A DNA stretch of 63,993 bases, filler included, from Hausera hauseri (Eukaryota), in assembly GCA_046269625.1 (NCBI GenBank). It is 11 parts of 11 records of this genome, joined end to end, with 100 filler letters (N's around TTAATTAATTAA, not from the genome) between each part and the next. Parts side by side here need not be neighbours in the genome. Positions count along the whole stretch, not along the records: positions 5,793 to 10,458 come from JBJURY010483687.1; 10 more parts are not named here. One strand, 5' to 3'. Position numbers and translations under genes: made by a program. Position 1 is the stretch's first letter. Each line of letters begins with the position of its first letter. Below are positions 1 through 61,029 of this stretch, piece after piece. Under the pieces are notes generated by a model. It ran no database searches, was not told where the DNA came from, and was given only the letters and a program-made list of their open reading frames with translations.

Positions 1-1311
1 TCGTGGCTACTGCTGCGATCTGCGTTTGATTAGTCCATAAAGGTGTTTCATCTATCCGGGTTGCCATTCGTCGGGTATATTTTATCAGCTCGTTAAAATT
101 GCTGGCTGTATGGAATTTAACTCATTCTCTTAAAGGCGGTAAAAATCCAAGTACAAATTGTTTTATGATCATGGCACCAAATGCGTGTCAACTCAAGCCA
201 AAATATCTATTCATTGACGTTTTAAATTTATTAATGTATGCCAATACCTCTTCATTTGGTTTCTGTTTACAGTTTTGGAATTTCAAATATAAGTTTTCTT
301 GTATGTTAACCTGCTGATTTTGTAGAATCCTTTCTCCGTGTTGTGTCCAAGTTTCATCCATTTGTCTAGGTAAGCGAGTTATTTCCATTTTTAGGTCGTT
401 ATTCACATGCACTGGTAGAAGCAACATTATCTTTTCCTCGTCCCATTGCATGGCTGTTGCTAATGAATCGTATTCGTCTAGTCTAGTCATCCTTTCCTCT
501 GTCCTTACTTGTTCGAGTCGTTCATTTAATTGATTTATACCTTGAGCTAGAGTATCTATTTTACTTATAGTGTGATTGCTTTCTACTTATATTTGCTCTT
601 GCTCGCATATTATAATTGCTACTTTATTTTGTATCCAATTAAACTTTTGATTCGCTTGTTTCTCGTTATTATCAATCTCTACTCTATTTCTATGTAGTGC
701 TGCTATATTGTCAATAGTCTGTTGCAGTGAATTATACATTTGTCTGGAATGGGCATTTACATTTTGTACTAGTTGGTCATTTCTGTCTTCCCATTCATTT
801 AAACTTATGTTACTATCGTTCACTATCTGTTCTGTTTGTGTAGTTCTTTCTTCGACTCTATCTAATCCTATGCCATTATTCATAACATTTGTCTCTATTG
901 TGTGACCTCCTCTTTGTTTAGATATATCTTGTATCTCTCCGTCTGATTCTGTCTTATTCTTAGGTCATCTACATTCACTTGATGTACTACTTAACGTGTT
1001 CGAAATTCTAATTCCTGATTAACTATTCTCTGTTCCAATTGTCGTGAATAAGGTGCATTACGAAATTGCCCTCGAGGTGACCTTCGTCGCCGATTAACTC
1101 CTTGTACCCACTGGTATTGTACTGGAGCTGGTGACATTTGCAGTGGATCAATGTCAAGTAATAATTCTGGAGTTGATGTTGTACTTAAAGCGTCTGAACA
1201 GTTAGCAGAACTAATATTTTCCTCGTTTGAATCAACTTTATTAATTGCTGTTAATTGATTTTGTGCCAGTTGTCCTCGGGATAGGGTATTGTACTGATGT
1301 CCCTGCGCCAT
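1..1311 (-). pseudogene. gag: Decayed Ty3/Gypsy-type gag (N-terminal YNTxSR-like motif, coiled coil, capsid-like domain); runs off contig end
   Basis: ORF pieces 991-1311 (MAQGHQYNTLSRG), 587-883 (coiled coil), 188-490 (RLDEYDSLATAMQWDEEK...FQNCKQKPNEEVLAYINKFK), then FVLGFLPPLREEL after a frameshift; capsid Q-x-x-x-E-x-V-x-x-Y pattern; stops and frameshifts between pieces. Confidence 0.7.
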
Positions 1312-1346
1312 TGTTGCTAAAAGAAATTAAATTGCTACCCATTGTA

Positions 1347-1863
1347 TTACATGTATATAGTACAGGTTTCTTCTATGGGTAATTCACACACAATACATTT
1401 CAATAACGTAGAATATTTACGAACACAGTTTTTACAATGAATAATGTGTCCATATGGTAAAGAAATCGTATTTGATTGATTTTTTCTACAGATTAAACCG
1501 GTCCAAATTGTACAGCTAATATCTGTACATCTTTTTTCCACTTCTTTCTCCTTTTTTTAATGTTAGGGTCAGGTGCTAAACTCTCTGATAGTATTCATCA
1601 TCCATCAATTGCATTTGATATATTTTGTTAATCATTGATTGTAATACCTCATATTGGGCCTTTTCATAAAGTTTTATATCAACCATTGTCAGGTATTTGA
1701 AATACACTAGTTCCATTACCCTGGTAAGTAGAAGGTTGTTGTACAATCTGTACCATCCGTAGGCTATTCTAGGAGGTTGTTTCTTAACGGCTGTTAACTG
1801 AATTGTCCATTTAACAAGATGGATCGGAGTCATGCTACTGGCATCTAAGGATCCTACATACAA
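1347..1863 (-). pseudogene. Decayed protein with C-terminal IAP/MDM2-type RING finger
   Basis: 1347-1541 reads LICRKNQSNTISLPYGHIIHCKNC...KCIVCELPIEETCTIYM*; upstream 1576-1863 ORF is probably the same gene, broken by a stop and frameshift. Confidence 0.6.
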
Positions 1864-2009
1864 TATTATTCAATTTATTACTTTATATTGTTATCTAAAA
1901 GAATCATATATATACGCAGACAGACATTTATTTATTTAATTCAAAATGCATGATTTTATAAATTAGCATTCGAATAAATAGAGATGTTCCCATTGTTCAT
2001 TTCTGGTAA

Positions 2010-2660
2010 TTAGAAACGTGTTATTCTTCTTTCTATATGGCTTCTACAGACTGGGCAGTTCACGGTTTGATTTGAGAATTTATCACACGTTTTCAAATGT
2101 TCACATGGTAAAAAATGACTTGTGCTAAATTCACATAGAAAACCACATATTTCAAATCGCGCAAATATAGATAATTAAGAATATTTTGTTCAGGTTGCTC
2201 TGTTTTTCTAAGGAAATAAAATTTAAATTCAGAAGTAATTCGAACGCATTTGGTGACCAATCTGGTTGAGTTTCTTTTCGATATTTTATATATCATAGTA
2301 TATTTTCACGCTTTGTAGGATGTCGGGATATTAATGACATGGCTATTTGGCTGTCTTGATAACTTTCATAAAGATTTCCAACATTGAATTATATTCGGCT
2401 TTGTCTTCTAATACAACTTTTTGGAACTTCATATATTGAATATTCACATTCAGTAGTGTGTAATATTTTCGGACATTGTTGGTCAATCTTTTCTAACAGA
2501 TCCGTCTCAATTAAGCATATGGTACATTTTACACATAGGGCTTCTCCTTTTATTATTAGTATTAATCCTTGCTCTGACAAGTGTTCAATATTTTTATTTC
2601 CTTTGAAAATTAACTTTCTCTTTTGTACAGTATTTAAAATTAAGTATAATTTTTTTCCAC
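2010..2660 (-). pseudogene. IAP-like gene: BIR-like domain, linker, C-terminal RING
   Basis: Manual translation NTVQKRKLIFKGNKNIEHLSEQGLILIIKGEALCVKCTIC...CPKILHTTECEY fits BIR (R..TF..., LA.AG, VxCxxC...H...C); distal LKYVVFYVNLAQVIF/PCEHLKTCDKFSNQTVNCPVCRSHIERRITRF* is an IAP-type RING with a 1-nt frameshift. Confidence 0.6.
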
Positions 2661-3260
2661 TGTATTGTCTTTTGAGTAAACTATCCGTATTGTTATTGTC
2701 GCATCACAATCAGCATCCTTGTCTATATCAGGTTAGTTTAGTAAAGGTATCTGTTAGTAATACGTTGTTGACGTTAATATTTAATAAATAAAAACATGTA
2801 GGATATAATTTTTTATGCATCCTTTTTGGTTGGTCCCTCGTGGACTCATTGAAATTCTCCTTGGCAATAAAGGCATTTTATATGTTCTGTTGTAGTTCGG
2901 AATAATCCCGATATCGCGTATAACCGTGCTAATTCTCCTGGGACGGATGAATTTGGATTAGTTGAAAAGGATATTTTCCTTGTTTGTGCATCTGAATAAT
3001 TCGTTTATTACTTTCAACTTAGTATAATTTATTATTATTTTTTTAATTGATGTTGGCCCTTTTTGTCTATTTCGATAATACAACAAATATCCTATTGTAT
3101 TAGGTTGGGTTAATCCTTGATATTCATATTTTTTGGCGTCCGAATTTTTGTATTTTTGACCGTCAACATTTCAAGCGTAACTAAAATATGTATAGGTGAA
3201 TTCATTTTTAAACATGTCATTATCGTATTATATCAACATGACAACTAAACTAAATTTTAT

Positions 3261-3545
3261 TTACAATCTTTCTATAGTATAATAGTCAAGTCCTTTCTTA
3301 AAGATTCGGTTGATTCCCCGACATAGTGGACATACGGTGGATATTATAAACCACTCTTTTACACAATTCAGACAAAATTCATGACGAAAATTCGTTAATG
3401 TCACAGAGTCAACCGAATAGGAACTCAGACAGATAGCACATGCAGGTCCTATGGGTGCAAAAGTTCCCTGTGGGTTATAGGTGAAATAAATATTCACTAC
3501 TGTGTGGTGACAATGAATTTGAAATCCATAGTTTAGTGCGTACAT
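3261..3545 (-). CDS. Small RING-finger protein (one ligand Cys changed to Phe)
   Basis: CAICLSSYSVDSVTLTNFRHEFCLNCVKEWFIISTVCPLCR. Confidence 0.8.
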   Translation of the reverse strand: MYALNYGFQIHCHHTVVNIYFTYNPQGTFAPIGPACAICLSSYSVDSVTLTNFRHEFCLNCVKEWFIISTVCPLCRGINRIFKKGLDYYTIERL

Positions 3546-5792: not shown

Positions 5793-6645
5793 GGTATTTG
5801 GTCGCGAGACTTAGTTAAACAATTGATTTTGGCTAGACCTGAAAATTTTGAAGGAACGTTACGATTAGCTCAAGATTTAGAAATGGCGCTAGATAGATAC
5901 ACCAGACAACGATAGAAATGACAGGAATAATGATCGAAATGACCGGAATGACAGAAACCGCAATGGTAATCGTGGAAGAGACGACAGACGATTTTCGGGT
6001 AACAGAAATTATTGGAATAGGAATAATAATCGCGGTTACAGAAATGGCAGAGGTAGTAATTATACTAATTCGAACAGGTCAGACTCTAATTCGGATAGGA
6101 ATAGAGAAAATTATAAAGGCTCAAACTACTCGAATCAAAACGGCGATAACCGAAATAACGATAATAGACGAACTGCCGACAATGTGCAAAGTTTGTCAAA
6201 TCAGTATAGTAAGGATATAAATAGATTGAAGTCGCCAGTGAACGAAGACGGTCGACAGAGAGTCGGCAGAAATGGGAATTTGGTTTGTTGTACTTGTGGC
6301 AAAGAAGGACACATCTCAAGGTCATGTCCAAATCCGAGTAGCGTTTCATTTACCGAACGAAATAAGACTAGTATGATTAGAACTAATGAGAACTTAGAAG
6401 CAAAGTATGGCGTTCGTGGAGATACAAACACTATTATCGATATACAGGATTTGAGAAAATTTTTGGATGTTCAGCCAGATACTACGAACTTACAAATTTT
6501 GATGGCCAGAAGAGAATGCGGAGATGAGCTAAGATTACTGGAAGTATATCACTGCTTAGTAGAACCAGAAACTGAATACGAACACGTGATAGAACCCAAA
6601 CGTAGTGAAATGACACGAAAAAAATTGTGTTCCAACAAGCAATAA
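5793..6645 (+). pseudogene. gag: Retrotransposon gag C-terminus: capsid end, R/N-rich tract, CCHC zinc knuckle
   Basis: IWSRDLVKQLILARPENFEGTLRLAQDLE, frameshift near 5910, RNDRNNDRND... tract, then CCTCGKEGHISRSC (CX2CX4HX4C). Confidence 0.8.
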
Positions 6646-9194
6646 ACCATCCGATAAACCAGACTCATCGACGGCAGTCGACTTGGACGCAGAGACTGAG
6701 TTTACAGCTAAAAAAGTAGATAGGTTTACTGAAGATGATGTAGCAGAAAAAGAATTTATGGAACCGTTAATACTTAAAATTTCGAAAAATAGAGGCCGTA
6801 GCCCTTCTCTAAAAACGAAATGAAGAAGTCGTTCACGCTCCAAAATAACTAGAGAGAAAATTAAAAAAACAGAAAACCCGAATGTCGTTGTAGGAGGCAA
6901 CACGGACCATAGTTTGAATGTGCCGGAGGTTGGTTTATTCACACCTGTCGGAGCAGCGGAGTCTATAGAGTCGATTAATGAAATTAACGAGATTTGCCCA
7001 ATTCCCATTAGTGAGGAAGATACAACGAGTACCGACGATTTTGATGCAAAGAAATGGAAAGTCCGACATTTATGGAAAAATGCCAATGAATTGAGGAAAA
7101 TGAGAAATAAAGGATATGGTCAGAAATATTACAGGGTGTCCTAGAAAAGCTTAAACAATTTAGCGAACAAGTAGACATATCCGGAAAAGAGCAACAGTTC
7201 GCTGAAAGGTTATATAGAAGTTTGAAACTGCGTAGCGAAAGGAAGTCTATAGAAGCAATCGACTTAGAACAACCCGAAGAGGTATCAGCCAAAACGTTGT
7301 CAAAATGGAAGCAGGAATTGGAATTGTGGATTAAAAATGGGTTTGAATTTTCGGAAGGATAGAGTAAAAATGAAGAGAGTGTCGATGTAAAAATTACTAA
7401 GGCTCAAACGCTATTATCGATTTTGGAAGAAAACCCAAAATTGAAGAGAGTAGTCCGTAATTTAGAACGTATGATGGACGAAATTCGGTATGCAATAATT
7501 AAACGACTTAAGGGAAAACCGGTTAACCACCGCAGTAACATCGACTTAGAAATATTGGGTATAGACCTAGTAAATATTCCTCCCTTAATGGAGATGATTA
7601 AACTTACGTTCGCCGTATCTAGACGATATACGAATTTAGAAAGTCGTATTAAAATAGAAAATGAAATACGAGCACAAATTTTAAGTTTGAGAAATCGAAT
7701 TATGTTCCCAAACAACGAGGATACTCGATATACAATAAAGGCTTGTATCGTAGAATTGGACGAGTATAGGGACGAGTTTAGTTATATCGGTCGAGTTATG
7801 AATTTCCTAAAAAAACAGACGATGAGTTAGAAGATGCATATAGGATGCTAGATAAAGCCATAATGGCGAAACAAGTAATCGCAAATCAATTGTCGGAATG
7901 GTCCTAGTTAGTAACGCGACTAACCAAATCGGTAGAAGATCGTAAAACAAAATTTCCGCAAAGCGAGCCAACGGCGAAGAAGCAACTAGAGGAAAGTGCA
8001 CACGATTTAGCCACGATGCGAATAGAAATAGACATCCGTATTCAATTTGAAGCGCTACGACGACTAAAATTTATGGGAAAGGAACGAGACGCATCGAATA
8101 TGGAGGAAATCTACAAATTGATCGAAGAGACGAATTTTACAGAGAAACGGAATATGATTTGCGATGTAAATTCAAAGCTAAGGATTGCCCGGTTAGAAGG
8201 GATTCTATATTTAACCGGGAAACCAATCGACGAAATTTCTGTACCAGACATTGAAATCTTGGACATTTGTCCAGAATATCAAGATACGTTAACGGACGAA
8301 ATAAGATTCTTACACAAACCTCAAGAATGGATGGCCGGATCAGACCAGAATTTCCATACCAAGTTGATAGAAATCGGAAACGATCCACATTTTAGCTTTC
8401 AAGAACGCAAGTTTGTAAAGAAATTGTCGGATGCAATGGACTATGATTCAAAGGTTATAAATGAGCTGTATGAGTTAGCCTATTTATTAGTGGAAATGGC
8501 AGAAATCAGCGATGAGCAGATGAGGCAATTGATGCCAAAGATACAAAAATTAGAAAAAACATGTATCAAAACAAAACAAAGAGCGACAAGGTTAGAGAAA
8601 ATAACAAAAGAGCTTGAAGTCTATCAAAACAAATATGCTTTTACCGAATTATAGATTAAGAATAAACAAGCATTTGTACAAAGATGGCAAAAAGATGTAA
8701 TCATCGAACTAACGGATTATCACCAAAAGCTACTCATCGACTCTAACGAATTCGGTGAATTACTAAAAATGATCCAATATGCCTGTGGAAATGGAGTAGG
8801 TTTTTGGACTACGCAGATGAAAGAAATACAACCTAGGTTAAAAGAAATTCGGGAAAATGTGCAAAGAACAAGTGTAGCCTTAGTAGGCGCTGAACTCCCA
8901 GATGTCAGTAATGAGCCAGAATGGGATGCATACTTATACGCAATGCTGACCGAAAAGCCCATGACTCCAGTACAATGGAATGAGATAGACACGTGCCCGC
9001 AGAACAGAAGATTTGATGTAAAAATGCTACTGGATTCAGCGCTGACTGAAAAAGATTTGATTGAATTAATTAAAGTAAATATTACTGAAAATAAATTAAG
9101 ACAACTTATTCCAACTTTAACTAAATTGTCCAGTGAGAACACGATTTATAGCACGGTGCCGAAACTTTTGATAAGAAATTTGCTAAAATTTTAA
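6640..9194 (+). pseudogene. Chain of co-oriented helical/charged hypothetical ORFs (6914-7144, 7423-7830, 8016-8654, 8769-9194), probably one or a few broken long ORFs
   Basis: Purine-rich coding-like + strand; frames resume across isolated stops; no protease, RT or integrase motifs recognised. Confidence 0.5.
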
Positions 9195-9214
9195 GGAATA
9201 AACCTGAGGTAGCG

Positions 9215-9784
9215 ATGAGAGTGATGGTATCATCCGAGTGGATGGACGAAAAAGAATGTGAGTTAACTACATATTCTTATGTAAGGGACGTGCGAGAATG
9301 GTTATTAAATAATGGTGGAACAAATGAGTTAAACTACAGATTTTACTTTATAGATAAAATACTCGACGACCTAAAACAACTAATAGATGTCGGGATTATT
9401 CCCAACAAAACAAACCAAATAGTAGCAATAATAGCTAACGATCAGACAAAAGAAGAAGCCACACGTAAGGCTAAAGTGAAACAATGGATAGGACAAATTA
9501 TGGGAGTTTGCGACGCTGAACTGTATTTTGAGTATTTACAAACGGACGAGAATAAGGAACAATACGACATAAATTTAGTACCACTAAGTGTAACAACCAC
9601 TAAGGGTCCAAGACCGAAACGCCCAGTAGGCAGGCCTAGAAAAGCGCGAGAAGAACTGGATTACAGTGGAGAGTTAATTAGAGAATTAAGACAGATGTCG
9701 ATTCCAACTCTTAGCACAGATAATGAGGAATTAAGGAAGTTAATAAAAAATTTAATACGAATTGTAAATTATTCCAGTCTTTGA
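9215..9784 (+). CDS. Ubiquitin-like domain protein with AT-hook
   Basis: N-terminus MRVMVSS...YVRDVREWL...YRFYFIDKILDDLKQLIDVGI fits the Ubl pattern (TVxDLK...RLxFxGKxLxD...LxDYGI); RPVGRPRK AT-hook. Confidence 0.65.
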   Translation: MRVMVSSEWMDEKECELTTYSYVRDVREWLLNNGGTNELNYRFYFIDKILDDLKQLIDVGIIPNKTNQIVAIIANDQTKEEATRKAKVKQWIGQIMGVCDAELYFEYLQTDENKEQYDINLVPLSVTTTKGPRPKRPVGRPRKAREELDYSGELIRELRQMSIPTLSTDNEELRKLIKNLIRIVNYSSL

Positions 9785-9793
9785 GGTGATGTA

Positions 9794-10458
9794 TTGGATG
9801 ATAAGGAGAAGATAATATTTGATGCAGCTAAGATGATGCTGAGTTCGCGTTTTAAACTATCAAAAAGTAACTTAACCGATAAATCGGTAATCGATAAGAT
9901 TATGGTAGAAAACATCAACGAGGGGTTGAGAAAAGTGTTATTATATTTACCTATCAAAATAAATCCTAATGGAGAGAACGAAATTAATAGGGCTATAAGC
10001 TTAGCACGGAAAGCAGCAAGAAGAATGCATTGCGAAGTAAATTGGGCAAGACTCTTTGATAAGGAACAGGACAAACGAAACAACAATAAACTTGACGATA
10101 TGTTACGTAACCTGACAACGTCGGACGTCGGAGGTCGGAAGAATGAATCAAATTGGATAATTAGCTTGCTCACCTTGATGATGCTAATAAAGCATATAGG
10201 CGCTGTAACCGTCTATGATTGCGAGAAGTTTAAATTAGGACAGAGATATTCCTTAATGGATCTGGAAGTATGCGAGGATGCCAAAACGCGCAAACTGGAA
10301 GCAAGAGAGAAAAGTTACTTCCTGTATCTACAACAAGAATTGGTATCCTTAGATCGAATGGAGTGCATGCTGAAACCATTGCGTAAAATTTTTCACTGTG
10401 GACTAGTACACGGACACTCCTCCATAATCAAGACAACTACTCCACTAATTCCGATAAA
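9794..10458 (+). CDS. env: Chuvirus-like (Jingchuvirales-type) envelope glycoprotein, N-terminal part, truncated by contig end
   Basis: Hydrophobic signal WIISLLTLMMLIKHIGA followed by VYDC...YSLMDLEVC...LYLQ...C...IFHCGLVHGHSSII, matching the YDC...SLxDxxxC...C...CGxHxHxS pattern of chuviral G proteins. Confidence 0.7.
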
Positions 10459-10933
10459 NNNNNNNNNNNNNNNNNNNNNNNNNNNNNNNNNNNNNNNNNN
10501 NNTTAATTAATTAANNNNNNNNNNNNNNNNNNNNNNNNNNNNNNNNNNNNNNNNNNNNCTAAAACAAGTAAAGAAGCCCATTTGGAAAATGGTTTTAGTT
10601 ATATAACAAAATTAAAACAAATTATTACAGCGGGTTATTTCAATTTATTTCTGTGAAATCCACGTTGGATGCATTGGAAAAATTGAACAATAGCGTCATA
10701 AAAACCAAACATGTGAATAAATTTTATTAGTTTTTGAGGTGTGTTTGTCCATAGCATCAAACATGGAATTCCCGACTGTGATGCTCGTTTGTAAGTTTCC
10801 TGATATGTTGACGAGAATAACCAGATGATCACGTCTGACAAATCGTATCGGATAATACATTTTAAAACATTACAATGTGTCAATAAGAAATAAAAATATC
10901 AAATGACTATAAATTATTATTAACTCTACACAG

Positions 10934-12226
10934 GTAGGTGCAGTGGCCAGTTTGCCATACGTTAAAAATGCTATTCGAGTAGCTCATTATGTGCTAAAGT
11001 ACACACGACATACTCTACTAGTTGGACAAGCAGCAGCCCAATTCGCAAAGGAAATGGGCTTTCAATGGGAAAATTTGTCAACTAATCGATCAGATAATCT
11101 TTGGCAACAGTGGCGCGCGGCTAAATGTCAACCAAATTTCCGGCGGAACGTCATTCCGGATCCTAATCAACACTGCGGACCTTATTCACCAATTCAATTG
11201 GATGCAGTTCAAATGGGTACGATTGTTGATATTATTTGGAGAGATTTATGGTGAAGGTATCATACTTTATTTTTTAATTCCTTTGAATGCAAATATATTT
11301 TAAGTTAATGAGTTTAGAGCAATTGTAAAATCTCATCCATTTTTGTTTCTACTGTTTTATAATTTGAATTCAATTTTATTGATTTAAAGTATATCCAATA
11401 ATTCATTTGAATTTTTGTTCAACTGTAATTCTGTTTGAACTATGAAAAATTTTTTTTTTGAAAACACCAGCTGCTATGCTCAATTGTATGGATATTTGGA
11501 AATACATTCCAACACCCGATATCTTCATAAAAACTGCATATTGTATAAGCCCAACCATCTTAGTACGCCTGAGTTTTCCAAAACAATAGTTTCTAGCTTA
11601 TGTTTTCTTCTCTCAACAAACTTGAAGTAAGCAAATTACGAACACCAACTGTAAATTTCAGTCAAAGATGACAACTTCCGAGTACCAGGAACAGTTGATG
11701 AGAAGCATCACGATACGATTGGAATGATTGCAATGAACTCTAGAGGTAACATTGCTGTTGGTACGTCCACAAACGGTGCCATTCATCGTGTGCCAGGTCG
11801 AGTGGGAGATACGGCCATTCCAGGTGCCGGTGGCTATGCCGATTCATCAGTAATGCATAATATATGTAACTGACTGACAATGTACAGGTGGGTGGTGCAG
11901 CAGGCACAGGTGATGGTGATGTACTAATGAGGTTTCTGCTATCGTACAGTGCTGTTGATCTCATGCGGAAAGGTCTCAGTCCTACACGGGCATGTGAAGA
12001 GAGTCTTCGTAAAGTAAAGCAGGTAACCCTATGAAGACAAATGATTTAATTGGCCATAATTACTCATTTTAAGATCGGGCATTGGTCGGGTGGGCTAGTT
12101 GCTGTTAATCGAGAGGGTCACTTTGGCGGTGCTTGTGTCGGGTTTAATGACTACAAGATTAGTGTACGCAGTGCTGATACTGGGTTGTCTACAGTTACGT
12201 ACCCGATAAAATGTTTTGAAAAATGA
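10934..12226 (+). CDS. AGA: Aspartylglucosaminidase, 3' exons 10934-11216, 11662-11849, 11888-12022, 12074-12226
   Basis: VGAVASL...HTLLVG...CQPNF...CGPY; HDTIGM autocleavage site; GTSTNG..H.VPGRVGD; GTGDGD; GT-AG introns of 445, 38 and 51 nt keep frame. Confidence 0.93.
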
Positions 12227-12779
12227 CCCCTTGATATTATCTTTCAAATACAATTCTAGAACAATGTCCTTTGGAATTTCTTTTCTTGTATAGCTTTCAT
12301 TATGTCTTTTGTATTTTTGAGAGCCAATTAAGTAAAAATTGGTTATTTATATTCAGTGGCGGCGGTAACAAATATGAAACAATTGTAAATTACGAGTTAG
12401 TAGGGAGAAAATGGGAAGTCTCTCACCCCCACCCCCGGAGGTAATCGATAAATCAATTTTGCACATGGCCAATGAATAGTGCACATGGTGCACTATCCAT
12501 GGGTAGTGTGCTAGGCAACCGTTTGCACATTTCACAAATCGATCGTTGCGCAGTGCACATTAGTGTACATCGATTGATGCACAGTGCATGTGCTCTGCAC
12601 ATATGCAAATGTACAAGATCAATAATATCGGATTTCAGATATTTCCAATATTGATGATTGGCACCCGGCACTGGGTGCAATCGAGTGCAAAATAGATTCT
12701 CTATATGAATGTGTAATTAGAATTTAAATCGATCGAGTGGATTTCGAATAATATCGATCCATAATATCGATTAGCTAGA

Positions 12780-12990
12780 TATTACCCATATTACTTGTAT
12801 TTTACACACAGAGACAAAAACACACATGCACACACGACATATTTTACCTACACATTTCCTATGTTCTGCATTTTACCCACACAGACAAACACACGTACAC
12901 ACGCGCGACTTATTTTAGCTATGCATTTCCCAGTTACTCCCAATTTACATGCACACACACAGGCAGACCAACACACACAGATACACACAC
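12780..12990. repeat. AC-rich low-complexity tandem repeats abutting the broken end of pPolB
   Basis: Repeated ATTTTAC(A/C)CACAC(A)GACAAA..CACAC units and (CA)n tracts. Confidence 0.65.
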
Positions 12991-15336
12991 GACATAAATG
13001 TCCTCAGTATGGATCTGATAGATGAAACTATCAGTATCCATATACATCAGCTGTATGGACTTGAATGTTGGGACCATGATGTCAAAGTGGAATTTGTACA
13101 TCAAGGTCTTTGACAGGTCCAGTATTGCCATACCCACATATATGGGCTTGTTGAACTCAAGCGATGTTTTCAGCATATTGATGCTGACCAAGTTCTCAGC
13201 ATATATGGTGCTGCTGTGGAAGTTGGGCTTGGCAATGAGCTTCTTTGCCGGCTTCCACTCAGAGACCAGTTCGATGTTGATTCTGTTGCGGATATTCTCC
13301 ATGGTCTTGCCAAAATCGTTCTTGGCATTTATCTGCAGCTTCGTATTGAGATCTATGTAGGGCTGCAGCCACAGGGAATTAGTAATGCGGAGTCCATGTC
13401 TAACAGCTTTCAGGAGATTTATATAATGGAATACATACTTCTCCCTTCTATCCAGATGGCAAAGCAGCTTTCTATGCTTTCCATGGGACGGAGGCTTGCT
13501 CTCAGGGAGGAAAGGCAGCTGTTGATGCCTTGTGCGGATAGAAGCCGGATATTCCATATCCACCTCCAGTGTGTATCCCGTATCTCTAGTGGGGTCCAGG
13601 TCCAATATAGGGATGTTTTCAGGATTCTCGACCCATTTGAAATTATCATATGGCAATGGGGCGCTCATTGCCCATCCATACAAGTTGTTGACATCCAGGT
13701 ATGATATATATGAAGATACCTTTGCTGAATTGTATTCAGCCACATACTTGTTGTTGGCCTCGCTATCCCGGTAAATTGTCTGGTATATTCCGCCTCTAAT
13801 GCCTCTCTCAATTATAAGGATCATGTCGTAATTCTTAATGATCTGCAGTCTAATACCAGTATAGCGCAGCATCGCTGCCCAACTCATTCCTGGAGTTGTA
13901 AAGAAATGAGCCGGATCCAAAGCATGGCTCTTCATTGTAACATCCCTGAAACTCCCAAAGACGTCTATCAGCGGCAGCACATCGGTTTGGAGATGTATGT
14001 CATTATATTCCCCTATTGTCCTGCATTGGAATGCCTGCCAGACTTTCTGGGCATGCTGGTAGTCCTTATTACTATTATCACAGTCCGACAGCTGGCTATA
14101 AAAGCCCTCTTTGTCCAGCAATCAGGTATCATCCAGTGTTTTTCATGAGGTTGTTTAGTCATAAGGAAACACGGCTTTCCATTTAACCAGGTCAAAGTTT
14201 GTGGGAAAGAATTGCTTCGTCTCCTTGTGTTCTTCTGAAGGGAGGTTCTTCACTAAACTATCCAGTAAAGGCGACATGAAACGAAGGCTGTCTATGAAGC
14301 AAAGTCGGATTTTACCATTATGCTTAGTGAAAGTGATATATTTCTCCTCACTGTTCGAGATTACATATATTACCACCAATGTTGTCTAATTCTCGGACTA
14401 TGAAATGCAAATCATGGCCGTTATGATTACGGAACACTATAGGTACATATGTGCATGTTTTGCAACGTAGATTGCAGTTGTTACGTGCTCCCCACGATAT
14501 ACATCTGTAAAATGGTAGTGATCCTTGGCTTTCCAATTTTCCTTGGTGAAAGACTTGTCACACAAATAACATGCTGTTGTCTTGCGCCATTCTTCTTCTT
14601 GTTCCCATGACACGCTCATATTATTCTTATGGTGTTGAAAATGTTTTCAAGCCTATGAGCCATGTCTTCAAGTCGTTTTATGAAATGTGCTGCTGCGCCT
14701 GGACCCCTGAATAGAAATATTTTACTGTCTAATCCTTTGGCATACATGGAATACGATGAGTGTTCCTGATATTGATATGCCATTGTGCTGCTATGTTGAG
14801 GACTAGGAGTGCAGTTGTGAATTGGTCGGCGAATAGCTTCAAAGTCGCAATAAATAACTATTGGGACCTTGATCTTCTTCTCGAACTCCTTGAATTCAAT
14901 ATAGTCCTCCTTGGGAAATTCTGGCCTTACACAGTAATTGTTATTGCAGTACATTTTGTGCTCTGCAAGCTTGTCCACTGCTGCATCACCACTGAAATGG
15001 GAAAATCATTGTTTACATATTTCTATTTGTCCATGATGATTCGTAATTTGGGATCTGACTAGACTCTCACAATTCTTGATCCAAACGTAATGATTCTTTT
15101 CTCCATCGTCTAGTAAGAGCAGATCCCTATGATCTTCCAATTTAGTATCATGTATCTGCAAGGGATACAATATATCTTCCTCATCCAATCCAAAGATGTT
15201 GATGGATATATTGTTGATTCTGCTGAACTTCTTAATTTCATCTATGGATGGAAGGAATATGATACATTGGAAGTCATAGTTGTGCTTCAGATCATTATAT
15301 AGCCAAACTCGATCTGCTGCATGTTTTTGATCCGGT
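12990..15336 (-). mobile_element. pPolB: Polinton/Maverick protein-primed DNA polymerase B pseudogene
   Basis: HYVWIKN, VIYCDFEA (ExoI), CYLC...DHYHFT (endonuclease VII-like insert), FIDSLRF, YLDVNNLYGWAMS (motif A), YMDTDS (motif C); several frameshifts. Confidence 0.92.
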
Positions 15337-28806: not shown

Positions 28807-31800
28807 TTAGCCACGTGTGAATTTCTGTCCCAGGATTTCAGGTAGGATGCAATGTGTAAAATACTGCTTAACTTTGGGAACTTCTGTTTCCCAGAGCTGA
28901 TCATCTGGCAGAATTCTTTCCACATAAATATCATTTTCACTCCATACTACAAAATCACAATATTGCACATCCACAATGTGAATCTGAGCCTGGACCTGAT
29001 AGTAATAAGGATGGTTTCTATCCAGTTGTACAGAATCTCCATCCTTAACGAGACAAAAGCCAGGCTGTCCGGCACACATCTTCAGACTGACTTCATGCTG
29101 TTTGCTCTGTGGACACTGAAAGATAAGACAATGAAAGACATGGATAATAAATAGCCTCCAAAAGATTGGATTTTTACGTTATATTTTTTTAAAGATTTTG
29201 TTTCCCTCATTTCACTATTCAACAATAAAACTAGAAAGTGATAGTTTGTTTATGTCTCTGTCAAACAGGTGTGTTCTACAGGTAAGTGTGCTTTCATCTT
29301 AAATATGTTTTAACCCTCTGGAGTCCAGAGTGAAATTGGACGTTTTTATAATATTTTTGCTTTTACCTTTATATTTCACTTTAAAATTTGTTTTTCCTGC
29401 CATGTTTGGTGTCTTTTTGTTCAGTACAACCTCCTATGTGTGAATTTGAAGATTTTTTTTAAATTGTGACCTGCTTTATCAACACAGCAAACTTTAAATG
29501 ATACAAAAAACACACAAAAATGCAAAATCCGAGTGAAAAATTTATAGTTTTTTTTACTGTGAAAACCACAAAAATTTATAACGAACCGTTTTTACAACAC
29601 AGAATGCAAATATGAACAGTAAACTTCATAAAAATATATTCAAATTGAACAAAAATCAAAACTATGTACACTATTTACATTAAAATGAAGCCTATTTTTT
29701 AGGCGTTTTTTAGGCACAACAATGAAGTGTCAGAATAAATCAGTTGTGCCACTCTTCAAAGCAGTTTCTGTCCAGAACAACACAGAAGGGCACATCACAG
29801 GCCTTGCACTTCCATGGTGTGTCTCTTCTCTTATTGTCCACCTGGTGACAGCGCCTACATTTCAGCCTCCCTTTTGTGGCTTTTTCGCCAGCACCAGTGG
29901 TTTTGCAGATGGGCACAGGAACATGCTCCATTTTCCTTTTCAGGGGGACACCTGTCTTGTCCACATCACAAAGTCCACACAACAGGTCCACCATGAAGTC
30001 TTTGTGAGTCAGGGGCTGCTCCTTCTTTGCCTTGCAGAGCTCCTTGTGCAGAATGTATGCATTTGTTGAAGAAATATCTAAAAAATGCACCAACATTGTC
30101 TTGTACATACGAGCTGTTTTTCTGTGGGTGGAGTAGTACTGAATCAGCTGGTCAGACAGGTGAACTCCACCCATGTGTTTGTTGTAGGGCATGACTGGTG
30201 TGGGGCAGGGCACATTTTTAGAGGTCCACTGACCATCTTGGTCCTTCACCTTTCTCCTCACTGTCTCACCTGAAAAGGCAGGATGGATGGTGGAGCACAC
30301 AGATACCTCCCGTGTGTCCTTCCACTTCACAAACAGGACCGGTTCCTCCCTGATCCATCTTATGGACCCTCTTTCACTTTTTTTAGTGAAGCCATTTCTT
30401 CTCCCTCTAGGGCAGCCTTTTCTGTTCTCCCTGTAGGTCCCACACGCTCCAAACTTCTTTACGGACAGGTCCGTAAACAACTGGGGGCTGGTGTAGAAAT
30501 TGTCCATGTAAAGATGGTATCCAGTCCCAAGGCAGGCTGGCTCGAGCAGGTCCAGGACAACTTTATGGGAGAATCCATGTTCAGACTGAGCATAATTCTT
30601 CCCAGTGTAAATGCCAAACCTGATTGTGTAGCCACTGCAGGATTCTGCAAACACAAAAATTTTTATCCCCCATTTTGTTGGCTTGTCCTTCATGTATTGT
30701 GTCATTCCTGTCTTTGCTCTGGTTGCCACCATTCGTTCATCCACTGCCAGCTCTCTCCTTGGATGGTAAAATGCCAGGCAGGCACTGAGAATGTCATCAT
30801 ACAGAGGACGGATTCTAAAAAGCTTGACATGGCCTGGGGTTCCTTTTTTTTATAATTTTCAATGTCCTGCTCAGGATCACTCAGGTGAATGTTCCAAAAG
30901 ATGGATCGGAATCTGTCACGTGTCAATACTTTGGTTGGGGTAGGGACAGACAAAACATGGTTCTGTTTCCAGTAATCTTGGATACTTGGGAGAGACACCA
31001 ATGACATGTAAATTAGAAGGCCAAAAAATTATACAAATCTTCAGTTTCTATGTCAGTCCATTTATATTTTTTTCCAGATCTCTTATTTTTTGCTGCATTT
31101 TTATTTGTGTTATTGCAGATGGTTTTCACAGTGTCAGTGGCAAAAAATAAAAAAAAGCTCTTTAGGAGTATGAGTAGACAGAGTGTCAAAATGGACTCCT
31201 GGTGTTCTTCGTGGCACGAATCTGCTTACCTCTGGGGCAGCATCAACATCCACCTCTGTCTTCCAGGGCTCAGAGCTGATGCCTGGCTCTGTTGATCCAG
31301 GGGATCTGGACCTGGTGCACGCACCGCGATGTGACGCGCCACCCCGCCCCACCCTCTGTGCGGACCTCCGAGGAGCGCTTGACGCGCTCGCTGGACCCGC
31401 AGCTCCTGCTCAGCTCACTAAGGGACTCCAGAGGGTTAAAAGGGGATGGAAAGAAGACCCTAAAAGACTTTAGATCTTGTAAAAGATCTTATCTTTCATA
31501 CTGTTACTCAAAGTCTGCAGTGCAGTGTTCAAAACCTCTTGATAAATCATTTTTACCTTGATTTCACACACCCCGGCTCCATGACAGTCACATGAAACAA
31601 CTCCATCTGGTGAGGCTCCCATGTAAGGCCACCTTGAGTTTAACCACAGCCCACTGTCCATGCAGGAAAACCCCTCATGGTCCACACGCTGGAGCTGCTC
31701 ATACTGTTTTCGGGCTGTTGCTTCAAATTTACAGTCATATCTGGAATAAGAATAAACTGTATTTAAAACTTGAATTTAATTTATTTCTGGTGCATAACAT

Positions 31801-41085: not shown

Positions 41086-41304
41086 NNNNNNNNNNNNNNN
41101 NNNNNNNNNNNNNNNNNNNNNNNNNNNNNTTAATTAATTAANNNNNNNNNNNNNNNNNNNNNNNNNNNNNNNNNNNNNNNNNNNNCATTTCCTGCGAACC
41201 CCCATTCTAATGCAATTATCAACACCGGTCAAAATGAAACAGGTAAAATATGGCCTGTTGTCAAAGAAAATAGGTGAAAATCACTTAGTGCATCGGAGGA
41301 CACG

Positions 41305-41562
41305 ATGAAAAAAATGGATAAGGATTTGATGTTGTCCAATGATATTCGAGACACATCCTTGCTTTTCCTTAAAGGCAACATAGCAAAAATAGTGCGTGCA
41401 AGTGGACAAACAGACGTTTTGCCAATGGAAGAGGTAAAAGGATACCTGACAATGAAGCTGAAAGGATATAAGGAACTGTGTGGTGTTAAATCGCCAATGT
41501 GGAAGTTGGGGAAGTTTGCCCTTGATTTTAGTTTTTTGGTGTTTTTAGTTTATGATTTTTAA
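41305..41562 (+). CDS. Small hypothetical protein convergent with pPolB (possible Polinton accessory gene)
   Basis: 85-aa ORF followed by AATAAA; no recognisable motif. Confidence 0.3.
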   Translation: MKKMDKDLMLSNDIRDTSLLFLKGNIAKIVRASGQTDVLPMEEVKGYLTMKLKGYKELCGVKSPMWKLGKFALDFSFLVFLVYDF

Positions 41563-41789
41563 TAAAATTTATTTGAGTTTTTGTATTGTGTTGCGTTGTG
41601 TTGTGAAAAGTATTTAAAATTTTGAGTAATATGAGACTTTTTTTCGCTAACCCCACTTAAGCCCCATTTCCTTGTTATAAAACAGAAGACAAAAACTAGT
41701 GTACAACTACGTTATTAATCACATGTACAGCAGATAAATGTAAAACAAACAAAGATCATAAATGTCAGTGATCTGTCTGGTCTGAATTG

Positions 41790-44700
41790 CATCTTTGTAC
41801 TGACTGAACTGTTTTGTTACTGACTGAGTAATAAACGTGTGTTATCTCAAGCGCCAATGTCAGTATACCCAACTCTTATTTTGCCCCACCCACTTTCGCT
41901 TGTCATCGTTGCATGACAAAGCAAACTTTTTATTTGTGATGGTATACAGCTGGTGCTCAATCGATCGTATGGTCGTTTGAGACAAAAAAGCCTTTCCTCC
42001 TTCTTCTCCATCTTGTCCGTCATAGACACGGCAATAATCACCGTAACTTGGTTCCGTCTGTTTCAGCTGGATGCCCGCATTTTCGACCCATAGTCCGTCA
42101 GCAGACTGTAACACTGGGTGAAAAAAATATCCATTCTCTGTACTGGACCCGGCCTTCACTTTTGTCCTTGAAGCAGGGGATTTTGTTTGTTATCGCGCTG
42201 CTGTACAGCGGATGATCTGGCGGGTAGTTGGGCGTGTCCAGTAATCCATCTGCCATCATTTGTCGGAACAGCTGGTCCCGATCGATGTTTTTCAGCTCCA
42301 AGAAAAAGCTGTCTGTGTCACCGGAAACGATACTGATCTCACAGTTGCCGCCGCCAAACATTTGCCGGTAACGTGCCAAGTCGCGATATTGGAGCTCGTA
42401 CATTCGCAACTTGCTCAGGTCCAGTACTACTTGTCCAATGTAGCTTTGCTGGTCCAATACTACTCCTTCCCTGTTGAGAAGCACGGCGACTAATCCGTCG
42501 GCAATGTGCATCGACCGCCTGAACTGAGCCTTGCTGGTGTACGTAACCAGCTGCTTTTTGTTGTTGGATAGGCGCATATTGAGCAGCTTTTTGAGGTTCT
42601 CTACCGTTTTGCCGTAAACAGAATTATTTTTTAACTTGTAATAGTCCTTTTCAAACTTTGTACAAGCTGCGGCTCGTTTCCTGGAATTTCATCGATGTAC
42701 GCCTTGAATATCGGCGCCTGATTGAAGCAGATTGCACGATGAAGCTGTGTGACGCGTACACCCAACTGCATGTAAAACTGCAGCAAACGCCAATGAACTA
42801 CGTAATTCAGCTTCGGTTCATGCGTCCTGAGCAGTTTCTTTACTTTTATTGAACTGCTGGGTGGACATTGGCTGATTTGTGCCACGGGCAATTCGTCCAA
42901 AGCGTCATGCAGCTCATCTGATATTACGAGATCGACCTCCATCAGGTAGACGACTGAGCTGCTTTCTGACGTGTTTTCTGCTGTCAAACTGTCCATTAAT
43001 TCATCCAATTCCTGTTTTTCGACAACCCATTCAAATAAACCGTACGGCAAGGAGTGCAAAAGCGCCCAGCCATACAGGTTATTAATGTCGATGTACAATA
43101 CTGATGTGTTATCATCACTGGTTATGTGATGCTTGTTGACCAACGTCATGCCGCCGCAAATGCCGACGTCAAACAAGCGGTACATTTTCGGCTCTTGCAG
43201 CAGATCAATGTCCCGATCAAGTGAAATTAGAGCTGATGCCCAACTCATTCCCGGTATTGAGTAAAAGTTGAGCGGTTCCAACCAATCTTTCGCCAACGCT
43301 TTAGCCCGAAACGATTGGAATACGTCGGCTAACAAGTACACGTCCAGTTTCAAGTATTGGAGCATGTACTCCAACATGTTTCTGCAGCCGAGCTCTGTCC
43401 AAGCTTCCTGTGCTCTGTGATACTCGTCCTCTGTGATTCCAGCCCACTGTGGCGGCAATTCCTCTTTTGTCTGAAGCCGCTCGTACGACATAACAAAGTT
43501 ATATGGGAATAAACTTTTGCTGCGTGCAATATGCGCAGGGAAATGCGTCAGCGTTATCAGCACATCCGGCAAGGCACTTACGAGCTTTCCTAGAGACTCA
43601 TTGAGGAACTGCAGTGAGTCAAGAAACCGTACCTGAAACCGGTTTATGCGTGCCGATAGGGACAGGTACTTCTCCATTGTTGTTGAAATTATGGATAGCT
43701 CCCAGTGCGGAAATCCGCTGATGGCCAATTTCAAAATATGGTGACAATCATAATCCCGGAAGTTATAAAAAATCACCGGCAGGAATGGCCGCACACGCCT
43801 TGCCAAATTGCATGAATTGCATGCTGCTCCAAGAAATCGACCGGTAAAATGATCGTGGTCCGGTACGAGCCGTTCCTATGCATCGAACGGCAATATTTTG
43901 TGGTGGCACAAATAACATTCATCCGTGATTGCAAACGTCAGGCGTTCACCTTCATCTGACAACATCAAGGGTTTATTGCGATTTCTACTGCGGCTGACCT
44001 GCGGCTTTTATTGGGACAACCAACATACCGACGGCGATTGGAATGTGTTTTTGGTCATACACGTTGCTCCGTGGTAGAATTGCCTCAATATCGGCATATA
44101 CAGTGTATGCGGGACTATCCGTTTTCGACCAGTCATCGAATCGGAGCTCCTTTTTGAGTGGCATTACGTACATGGTTGCGCCCGTTGAATTTTGTCTGCA
44201 CAGAGTCACATGTTTCTCCCATGTTGTCCCTGATCTGAATCCGTGCAAATACACGGGACACCATTTACACCGTATTCGCTTTTCGATGAACTGGTCATGT
44301 GCCATATTCAACAATCTCTCCAGATTTGTCACTGCAACGTAATGGAATTTTTCCTTTTGCTCCAATAACAACAAATTTATTGGGCCTCAATTTGGGTTCC
44401 GACTACGGTAGATTATATCCACATGGGGGTTTTTGTAAATTTCTACATCCGCCGGTATTTCTACGATTGTGTTGTACCAAAACACGTTGATTGACAGTGT
44501 CGGATTACGCCATTCAAATGTCGGAATGGATTTCAAGTTCATCGGCATCCAGCTTTCATCGAAATCCAATATGGAAAAATATTTCTGATACTGTTTAGGA
44601 CGAGATGCACTATGTCTGTCCACTTCGTCGTATTTCAATATCGCCAGAATACTGTAAAGAAAACAGTATTCGTCGTTAGTATTTTTTATATTCACTACCA

Positions 44701-45395
44701 CCAGAGACTGCTTCAGATGTGCAGGTGTCGGTATGAATGATCGCCCCGACAAATATATTATGTCACTCGACTTCGTTACAATAAAGCCGAGAGTAATATA
44801 ATTTGTATAATTATAGTTTGTATAATTCGCCATCCACTATCCTTTTCCGTGTAGTTGGCGATTTTCTCCTCGAGCTTTTTGCCTACGTCGGCAATAAAAT
44901 AGTTGGAATACGGTTCGGCTCGATGTGACAGGTACCACTGTTTCCTGTCACCTTCAACGTTTTCAAATTCTGCAAGAGCATAATGTTGCACTTTGCTGTG
45001 GTATTGTTGGAATTTGGCCACCTCTATTTCCAACCGGTTACGCACATAAGCGGGTACATCCTTCAATTGCGTTGTTGCTGTTGTTTTCGCCGTCATGTCC
45101 ACCTTCATGTCCACGTACGATCTGTTCAGGTCGTACTTGATTGTAATGTTGGGAATATTGGCCTCCTGTTCTTCTTGTTGATGCTGTTTCTGCTGCTTCT
45201 GCTGCTGGGTACTGTTTCGTCAAGACTTGTTGAAGCCTGGCGTTTTCTACTGGTTGTTGTTGTTGACATGATGCTGTTGTCCCTATTTGTTTCTTCGACC
45301 GCTTAAACTGGTTTAAGTGGTCCTTGTGAGTGTTGTAAAATTGTTTATAGTTGATTTCATCAACTATAGAACAACAACCGGGACAAACATAGGTT
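41790..45395 (-). mobile_element. pPolB: Second Polinton/Maverick pPolB pseudogene, nearly full length
   Basis: VVNIKN...CFLYSILA, HYVAV, VYADIEA, DHDHFTGRFLGAACNSCNL, FLDSLQFL, YLKLDVYLLADVF, YIDINNLYGWAL, KLKNNSVYGK, SGDTDS, LSCNDDKR; many frameshifts. Confidence 0.93.
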
Positions 45396-49751: not shown

Positions 49752-49824
49752 ACCATCCATGTGCTGATTCTCGCATATCATCAATCATCATGACCGGCCG
49801 ATCTCCGAATAAATCAGCGTGTCC
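49752..49824 (-). mobile_element. IS end (IS5-family-like) inserted at CTAG inside the TPR gene
   Basis: 49753-49824 is the exact reverse complement of 59878-59949; terminus GGACACGCTGATTTATTC; flanked by CTAG. Confidence 0.7.
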
Positions 49825-60443: not shown

Positions 60444-61029
60444 TCTCTAAACAAAAAATGTCATATAAATAAAAGTGGAAATAATCTTCACGGCTCATAT
60501 TTTTTCATTTACAACACCATATCTGTCATGAGTGTAAAGATACTGGAATAACGAAAGATACATTGTGCGACCTTTTTTCAAATCTGACGAATGAAGTTGC
60601 AAAATAATGAATTCTTTATTGCTACGCTTTTTCAGTTTTGTCAAATAATATTGAACAACGGGTAACTTGATGCGGCCAGATATTGTGATTTCGAGGCGGA
60701 AGATTAGGGCCTGCCTAGGCGCCCGACGCATCGGCAGCGGAAACCCGATCGTGCCCAATCAAATAGACCATAGGGCGCCGGCCGCTGTGGGCACCACATT
60801 GACCTTAAATGACCTCATTTGACGGAGTTAAGGAATAACTACAAGTTCCTATTCACCCAGTCAGGGATAAGGAATAAGTACCAATTCTGATTCACCCAAT
60901 CGCCAAATTTACTTTTGTTCACTACTGCGGATACTACCGAAATTACATTAAAGATTACGTCACAATTGTTGCACTATTGGAAGAGCCATGTAAAGGCTAG
61001 AAAAATTCATCCGTTGCAATGGTTAGATT

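Follow-up and report, generated by a model that had tools for sequence, protein, structure and literature searches.

Burro and GYPSM1 are giant gypsy-like elements of planarians (PMC6431247, which cites Grohme 2018 and Jurka 2007 for them). Burro encodes gag, a ubiquitin-like domain, a Bcl-2-like domain, a mononegavirus-like env and pol in one ORF (PMC6431247, section 7); it is characterized by a length of 25-30 kb, a dugesiid host and two or three CCHC knuckles, and Dugesia japonica is reported to have decayed copies that carry stops and frameshifts (PMC6431247). Ty3/gypsy elements of GAG-ENV-POL order with an HSV/gB-type env, the 'ancient errantiviruses', are described from Nematoda, Bryozoa and Platyhelminthes in sections 5 and 14 of PMC13524379, which cites Sacco et al. 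2022. As the words 'ubiquitin', 'Bcl-2', 'accessory' and 'Burro' occur 0 times in the main text of that paper, a spacer module is absent from the discussion there. Finally, Anakin comprises mosquito BEL/Pao elements with a chuvirus glycoprotein (PMC7642597, as cited in PMC10084718 and PMC12440569).

Layout of the contig and the Gag region

The window (the whole stretch of 63,993 nucleotides that was analyzed) consists of 11 unrelated contigs joined by N-linkers, and the element occupies exactly one of them, 5793-10458. We read this contig as part of a decayed animal Ty3/gypsy LTR retrotransposon of Burro-like type, of which it represents the front (5' internal) half, with a probability of roughly 0.84. 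Its domains and their order, all on the plus strand, are as follows.

5793..5912 (+): C-terminal end of a Gag capsid domain, truncated at the contig start (weak profile match)
5893..6282 (+): Gag linker rich in N/R/D/G/S, preceded by a frame change in 5893-5915 (translation; L003 alignment)
6283..6333 (+): single CCHC zinc knuckle, nucleocapsid (Pfam PF00098 zf-CCHC)
6334..9032 (+): spacer of ~900 codons, its first part acidic and Ser/Arg-rich and the rest helical-looking (frames)
9033..9179 (+): helical domain, found upstream of the ubiquitin-like domain in relatives (E 0.0014 among 782 window segments, relatives-only profile positions 15-62)
9152-9194 (+): frame change after the helical domain (frames)
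9224..9445 (+): ubiquitin-like domain (relatives-only profile positions 81-154, E 3e-6)
9614..9643 (+): basic GRP motif, which we take to be AT-hook-like (by eye in translation)
9782-9784 (+): in-frame stop just before the next domain (frames)
9785..10150 (+): putative domain at the position of the relatives' Bcl-2-like domain (alignment extension from env)
10154..10204 (+): hydrophobic stretch inside the frame, env signal or anchor (hydropathy; aligns to the same stretch in relatives)
10205..10458 (+): N-terminal part of the env ectodomain, PF24664 (gB-type, chuvirus-like), truncated at the contig end (Pfam, phmmer)

The single CCHC knuckle is thus followed by 3.9 kb that lack protease, RT, RNase H and integrase, with a PF24664 glycoprotein, of which the N-terminal ~90 residues are present, at the 3' side, where the contig terminates within env. 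The contig, an internal piece, carries neither pol nor LTRs, and no contig of either run (X1 or X2) spans it whole. These points count against the reading, as do the single knuckle, the long and largely unmatched spacer, the region at the Bcl-2 position that the relatives' profile does not score, the stops and frame change not seen to vary among the rows listed, and the long env branch, all described below.

A Gag with capsid and CCHC knuckle is present, its capsid end being weak: 5793..5912 scored 7.3 bits against positions 138-168 of the 173-position capsid profile of the relatives, a value equaled by 0 of 500 shuffles, and was missed by the six-frame profile search at iE 0.5. The Gag linker can be aligned to the same region of relative L003 (iE 7.9e-9). 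The single-knuckle gag proposed in the first-pass annotation is borne out by a Pfam zf-CCHC match at 6283-6333 (E 4.6e-4; 20.6 bits against a cut-off of 20.8).

Probable position of pol

Profiles built from the protease (PR), RT-RNase H (RT-RH) and integrase (IN) domains of the relatives matched nothing on the contig in any of the six frames, confirming the earlier statement that no such domain lies between gag and env. The same RT-RH and IN profiles strongly detect pol on two of the remaining contigs of the window, and the PR profile does so weakly (iE 0.26-0.47). Gag is followed by a PF24664 env, and pol does not intervene. The order with env downstream of pol, given in the first-pass annotation for insect BEL/Pao elements (the kind to which Anakin belongs), is not seen here, there being no pol 5' of env on the contig.

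In the relatives, env is followed in frame by PR-RT-RH-IN in 4 of the 24 protein matches and 3 of the 4 loci, and none has pol before env; a further 4 of the 24 protein matches show env and then protease-like domains (one of them weak, E 0.0018). Env and then PR-RT-RH-IN in one ORF is found in P0004, P0007, P0011, P0018, P0025, L001, L002 and L004. Env precedes pol in the same ORF in every relative long enough to judge, and pol comes first in none. L002 is a single frame of 3,703 codons with a capsid-like start, two knuckles, two helical and ubiquitin-like modules, env and pol. The pol of the relatives is Ty3-like (Ty3 Gag-Pol is the best match in the PDB, E 3.5e-33), and no LTR pair emerged when L001-L004 were aligned to themselves by BLAST. 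The order in the element is thus probably gag-accessory-env-pol, one of the two options raised earlier and of an already known kind, and pol would lie beyond position 10458.

The other option was a non-autonomous element (gag-spacer-env-LTR) that has no pol of its own and is packaged together with that of a helper. The missing pol, the large family of copies and the unusually long spacer are all compatible with it. However, the contig ends ~15% into env, upstream of the site where the relatives carry pol, so that the option is left unsupported and the phrase 'in place of pol' does not apply; of the 24 matches, 8 have an element domain after env, and in all 8 it is protease or full pol, and nothing positive speaks for loss of pol. 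We consider such a derivative quite unlikely.

The probably interrupted frame and the spacer

Five stops and five frame changes interrupt the presumed polyprotein frame over the whole contig. Those of the spacer are the frame changes in 6614-6645, 7111-7144 and 7782-7830 and the stops at 6821, 7360, 7905 and 8652. Many divergent copies of the element exist: contigs from each of the two runs (12,788 and 798, most of them <95% alike) cover all 30 bins of the contig, and divergent contigs from both cover the spacer. No RNA data set is listed among those that contain the sequence, which carries no information on expression. Seven of the 12 indel rows listed fall inside three frame-change zones and four form frame-neutral pairs, and at the stop at 8652 another letter is found in 6837/6927 of the depth in X1 and 276/276 in X2. 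Four of the five stops and the first frame change do not appear among the variant rows listed (40 of 1,348); the indel at the second frame change is carried by 2 contigs only (depth 20/140), and that beside the last by 1 contig, which alone is insufficient to explain that frame change. The putative single Gag-spacer-env frame is broken in this copy, with continuity supported at four breaks by other copies and at one by the module profile described below. The copy at 5793-10458 is presumably dead.

These data bear on the 'accessory ORFs' of the first-pass annotation, which are more likely fragments of one broken polyprotein frame: the frame change in 9152-9194 lies within a module that the relatives encode without a break, and divergent copies vary at several breaks. 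Separate functional ORFs in the middle region, or programmed frameshifts or read-through, would make the breaks functional. Several pieces of 119-212 codons do begin with ATG, relative L003 likewise has one stop directly upstream of the env signal, and four stops show no difference in other copies among the 40 of 1,348 variant rows listed. Against this, one frame change splits a module that is uninterrupted in the relatives, three frame changes and the stop at 8652 vary among other copies, and relatives L001 and L002 are open throughout, making functional breaks very unlikely.

The distance from knuckle to env (~1,295 codons) is longer than in all 8 relatives measured (219-810). The spacer at 6334..9032 gave no Pfam match at E 0.001 and no match to the relatives; VEFS-Box, DUF5798, Transposase_31 and the other Pfam matches there (E 0.01-0.9) were set aside as noise. 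No usable match to 7908-8651 was present in the ESM Atlas, and a word-based search of 7908-9191 against shorter proteins found nothing. An internal repeat, 7111-7827 versus 7782-9191, had been suspected by eye and was ruled out (28/200 shuffles scored as high). The only tandem repeat on the contig is a single 12-mer pair. The earlier description of the ORFs as unknown accordingly stands for ~900 codons, which have no detectable homologue, but not for 9033-9445, which is homologous to the helical and ubiquitin-like module of the relatives.

The helical and ubiquitin-like module and the Bcl-2 position

A profile of seven modules from the relatives, from which the window sequence was excluded, was searched against 782 window segments. 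Only two of these fell below E 1, in order and on either side of the frame change in 9152-9194. As judged from this profile, the spacer module is homologous to that of gag-env-pol elements. The alignment of the ubiquitin-like region (A5) had ubiquitin or ubiquitin-like chains as the best 60 of its 427 PDB matches, single-domain chains starting from E 6.6e-5; the window piece 9224..9445 alone gave no Pfam ubiquitin match. A ubiquitin-like domain is present upstream of the Bcl-2 position and env, as in Burro. GRP-like motifs also lie 5' of env in relatives P0002, P0007, P0008, P0019 and L003.

With both BLAST and phmmer, the alignments of env with P0001 and P0002 continue into 9785..10150. Relatives P0001, P0002, P0010, P0021 and L003 have weak Pfam Bcl-2 matches here (E 0.001-0.2, all under the cut-off), and all 60 PDB matches listed for the relatives' domain are Bcl-xL or Bcl-2 (best E 0.01). 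The relatives' Bcl-2-like profile gave E 3.4 and 4.9 against 9785..10150 itself, with an hhalign probability of 0.6%; ESM Atlas leads for the same region, at the 0.75 level only, were discarded.

Identity and ancestry of env

The claim of a chuvirus-like glycoprotein holds: Pfam PF24664 (Monjiviricetes_fusion) matches at 10157-10432 with E 1.5e-6 and 27.0 bits, equal to the cut-off, over profile positions 5-96 of 653, and all 24 phmmer matches to the env piece carry PF24664. The likeness is to the profile of the family. The env alignment (A1) has 12 invariant columns, four of them cysteines. The reported signal peptide is retained in part; 10154-10204 is hydrophobic and signal-like (top 15-residue hydropathy, 1.87, of five pieces scored), but it is internal to a long frame, with no separate env gene start. 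Searches of A1 against PDB sequences gave 0 matches and those of alignment A4 gave pol and protease matches only, with no fusion protein; a word-based search of 9785-10456 against longer proteins found nothing.

The first-pass annotation had suggested an independent capture by a Gypsy-type element; in this case an unrelated gypsy lineage would have acquired a chuvirus glycoprotein recently. The env piece is indeed divergent, with a best identity of 37-39%, and the window sits on a long branch of the env tree (2.37) in an unstarred group. However, the rows at the shortest path from it belong to gag-env-pol elements that have the same spacer module (support 81/86, unstarred), and the shared module ties the contig to that lineage separately from env. 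Ty3/gypsy elements with the same type of env and the same order are already published (PMC6431247; sections 5 and 14 of PMC13524379), and PMC13524379 argues that the gB-type env is old in such elements. Independent capture is unsupported and highly implausible.

Least plausible of all are separate, nested insertions of gag and env, to which the lack of homologues for most of the spacer in the relatives could be attributed, but which are opposed by an AT skew that is uniform across 6001-10000 (0.22-0.25), by the absence of any listed repeat of at least 30 bases with both copies in the contig, and by divergent contigs that bridge six intervals (5878-6186, 6305-6599, 7669-7901, 9036-9320, 9570-9894 and 9746-10099). 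The findings named beforehand as refuting the annotation were not made: the PF24664 match is real, and neither pol remnants nor signs of nesting were found.

Discussion

The family ORF would run from gag (capsid and knuckle) through a long spacer, the helical and ubiquitin-like module, the domain at the Bcl-2 position and env to PR-RT-RH-IN. In intact members, the polyprotein may be synthesized in the cytosol, the internal hydrophobic stretch threading env into the ER, where signal peptidase would cleave; the env membrane anchor would bring the chain back to the cytosol, and the protease of the element would release the remaining parts. The signal stretch might be retained as a tail anchor on the preceding domain, as in cellular Bcl-2 proteins. 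The ubiquitin-like and Bcl-2-like domains would target host protein turnover and cell death, a role proposed for such domains in Burro (PMC6431247).

As best explained, the contig adds a further, decayed member to a group that is described but little studied; it is of modest comparative value and comes from a lineage with an unusually long spacer. The retention of the helical and ubiquitin-like module across elements that are 20-45% identical suggests a core function. A host other than a planarian would extend the range of Burro-like elements. The one surprising outcome would be an enveloped family without pol; a divergent, high-copy lineage of Burro-like type, possibly beyond planarians, in which the 900-codon spacer carries new host-modulating cargo in the place of MATH and a recognizable Bcl-2, and which has shed pol and spreads as an enveloped, helper-dependent particle, is a long shot.

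Among known systems, the likeness to Burro, by its published description, extends to the CCHC Gag, the long spacer, the ubiquitin/SUMO-like domain, the Bcl-2 position and the mononegavirus-fusion-like env, as well as to very many copies, some decayed. Burro has env ahead of pol in one frame; here, pol is expected beyond the contig end. In contrast to Burro, the contig has no MATH match, and its Bcl-2 homology is undetectable. MATH_TRAF_C, Smc-like, BIR and ankyrin gave no Pfam match on the contig at E 1 (BIR and ankyrin may lie outside the part it covers), and D. tigrina ORF1 also lacks MATH (PMC6431247). Because it has one knuckle instead of two or three, the contig is filed as Burro-like, outside Burro in the strict sense.

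With the elements of PMC13524379, as sections 5 and 14 of that paper present them, it shares an env resembling chuvirus G and the order gag, env, pol. Anakin, as it is cited, has the same glycoprotein family tied to an LTR retrotransposon; the relatives of the contig differ in having a Ty3-like pol, placed after env. Locus scans for relatives found none in viral contigs, prokaryote genomes or the metagenomes queried with a single protein, and a word-based protein search with P0002 370-800 returned only itself. The metagenomic relatives L002, L003, L001, P0002 and P0008 share the helical and ubiquitin-like module 5' of env, and most also have the GRP motif and a Bcl-2-like domain; they differ in their shorter spacers (599-810 codons in the four measured, against ~1,295) and are 24-39% identical to the window.

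Domain content of the contig

The sequence at issue is one entire contig, 5793-10458, of a window in which 11 unrelated contigs are separated by N-linkers. Its features are as follows.

5793-5912, plus strand: probable capsid end (7.3 bits; 0/500 shuffles equally high)
Between capsid end and knuckle, plus strand: low-complexity linker
6283-6333, plus strand: single CCHC knuckle (E 4.6e-4)
9033-9176, plus strand: helical half of a two-domain module (profile positions 15-62, E 0.0014)
9224-9445, plus strand: ubiquitin-like half of the module (profile positions 81-154, E 3e-6)
10154-10204, plus strand: hydrophobic stretch just upstream of the PF24664 match
3' end of contig, plus strand: match to PF24664, Monjiviricetes_fusion (E 1.5e-6, profile positions 5-96 of 653)

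The first-pass annotation had described a gag with a single CCHC knuckle, no pol between gag and glycoprotein, and a signal peptide leading into a chuvirus-type glycoprotein; all three descriptions hold, the last as a hydrophobic stretch and a profile match. Profiles of protease (PR), reverse transcriptase-RNase H (RT-RH) and integrase (IN) built from relatives gave no match on contig 5793-10458, while the same RT and IN profiles detected pol on two other window contigs, as the PR profile did weakly. As only positions 5-96 of PF24664 are matched, about one seventh of env is present, and the contig end falls inside it. PMC13524379 likens this env type to Chuviridae envelope genes.

The module, common to the segments of seven relatives, was searched for with a profile built from those seven, excluding the window sequence. 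Two of 782 window segments scored below E 1, in order and flanking the last frame change. A second-half profile (window row included) searched against the PDB gave ubiquitin or ubiquitin-like chains for all of the best 60 matches listed. The helical domain (9033-9179 and relatives) may resemble the TFIIS N-terminal fold; Pfam returned no TFIIS N-terminal match for it. This domain, which precedes the ubiquitin-like one, is conserved, and in metagenome locus L002 the two are duplicated together.

Elsewhere in the window, broken ordinary gypsy PR-RT and RH-IN regions lie at 48252-49650 and 60911-62554 (two other contigs). A gag capsid at 68-481 (minus strand; relatives' capsid profile, iE 4e-16) has several ORFs upstream, up to 3545, with 3261-3545 RING-finger-like by eye; 68-3545 may represent the 5' part of a related element that carries accessory ORFs ahead of gag. 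By eye, 29740-30849 encodes a piggyBac-like transposase, and a bacterial ORF at 49813-51291 (plus strand) consists of nine 141-base repeats that appear TPR-like. Also by eye, ~10930-12230 (within 10559-15336) is presumably an aspartylglucosaminidase-like gene with short introns, and 12934-14954 and 42098-45219 (minus strand; within 10559-15336 and 41186-45395) presumably each hold a broken, Polinton-type region resembling protein-primed polB.

Order of env and pol in relatives

An exhaustive phmmer search with the env piece gave 24 matches (26-38% identity), all containing PF24664. In-frame PR-RT-RH-IN follows env in four (P0004, P0007, P0011, P0018) and protease-like domains follow it in P0001, P0008, P0019 and, weakly, P0006; the other 16, mostly short fragments, have no pol domain, and pol precedes env in none of the 24. 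Scanning metagenomes with the env alignment yielded at least four loci: env then pol run in single frames of 3,426 (L001), 3,703 (L002) and 2,693 (L004) codons, and the L003 sequence ends inside env, with one stop directly before env. The solved structure closest to the pol of these relatives is Ty3 Gag-Pol (E 3.5e-33).

A gag-spacer-env-pol order is therefore probable for the contig (roughly 0.84). This was one of two options in the first-pass annotation; the other, a pol-less enveloped family, has nothing in its favour and is very improbable.

Several relatives have further peculiarities. A DEDD-family exonuclease ORF follows pol in L001 (10617-12104, Pfam RNase_T E 1.4e-5) and L002 (12085-13470, E 0.0011), and a segment before env in P0004 resembles it by eye. 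P0011 is a gag-env-pol polyprotein that NCBI lists as a hypothetical protein from a Flavobacteriaceae MAG; its DNA is likely of animal origin and was binned with bacterial sequence. P0017, in which the env N-terminus is fused to an FAD-oxidase C-terminal domain, is probably a chimeric gene call.

The spacer and the Bcl-2 position

The knuckle-to-env distance is ~1,295 codons on the contig versus 219-810 in the eight relatives measured. About 900 codons (6334-9032) had no match in Pfam, Atlas, protein searches or relatives, where each search took in part of the region or a restricted range of lengths. A weak Bcl-2 match lies directly before env in five relatives, and a profile of domains of this kind gave Bcl-xL or Bcl-2 for all 60 PDB matches listed (best E 0.01). 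The contig segment at this position was unscored by that profile and has no GGW motif, which is present in 6/7 relatives. An env tree (87-column piece) weakly groups the contig, at the tip of a long branch, with elements carrying the module and Bcl-2-like domains; the group is unstarred (81/86).

By analogy with other viral polyproteins, intact members would make a single polyprotein, whose internal hydrophobic stretch would thread env into the ER, where signal peptidase would cleave it. With the chain brought back to the cytosol by the env anchor, the element's protease would free the capsid, the domains of the spacer and the enzymes of pol; after cleavage the signal would stay on the Bcl-2-position domain as a tail anchor.

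Probable lesions in the middle region

The plus-strand pieces are separated by five frame changes (zones 5893-5915, 6614-6645, 7111-7144, 7782-7830 and 9152-9194) and five stops (6821, 7360, 7905, 8652 and 9782). Two lines of sequence evidence indicate that these are probably lesions of one frame: the relatives' module continues either side of the 9152-9194 change, and divergent pieces in two public runs from two studies (X1, possibly the source, and X2, found via a small share of words) differ at several of the breaks. These pieces cover 30/30 bins in both runs (12,788 contigs in X1, 798 in X2). Among the 12 indel sites listed of 20, seven fall inside three frame-change zones, four are frame-neutral pairs and one lies just outside the last zone; two sites are supported by one or two contigs each. 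At 8652, nearly all depth carries a different letter in X1 and X2 alike; the other four stops are absent from the 40 variants listed of 1,348. No divergent piece spans the whole contig. Short divergent contigs bridge six stretches, among them the border between knuckle and spacer, three of the frame changes and stop 9782, which argues against gag and env being nested insertions. With ten breaks, this copy is most likely dead.

Comparison with published elements

According to PMC6431247, planarian Burro/GYPSM1 has an ORF of roughly 5,000 residues encoding, in order, Gag (with two to three knuckles), motifs of Smc and MATH type, a Ubi2/SUMO-like domain, BCL-2, env matching mononegavirus fusion glycoproteins, and pol; the paper presents it as the first case of an env lying in frame between the other two genes, and decayed copies are noted in Dugesia japonica. 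P0025 (4,844 aa) is Burro-sized and shares ankyrin repeats with Burro; behind its env come as many as seven protease-like stretches, the repeats, a C2H2 finger and pol. PMC13524379 describes nematode, bryozoan and flatworm Ty3/gypsy elements of GAG-ENV-POL order whose env is gB-type, and a chuvirus-like glycoprotein in 114 arthropod gypsy elements. In PMC10084718 no capture by arthropod gypsy elements had been clear, and this may be why the first-pass annotation treated such a capture as surprising. The contig is not classed as a strict Burro because it has one knuckle, whereas Burro has two or three, because its segment at the Bcl-2 position went unscored, and because neither pol nor LTRs lie on it. 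The element probably works like Burro and is a divergent, decayed and newly found element of a kind already described.
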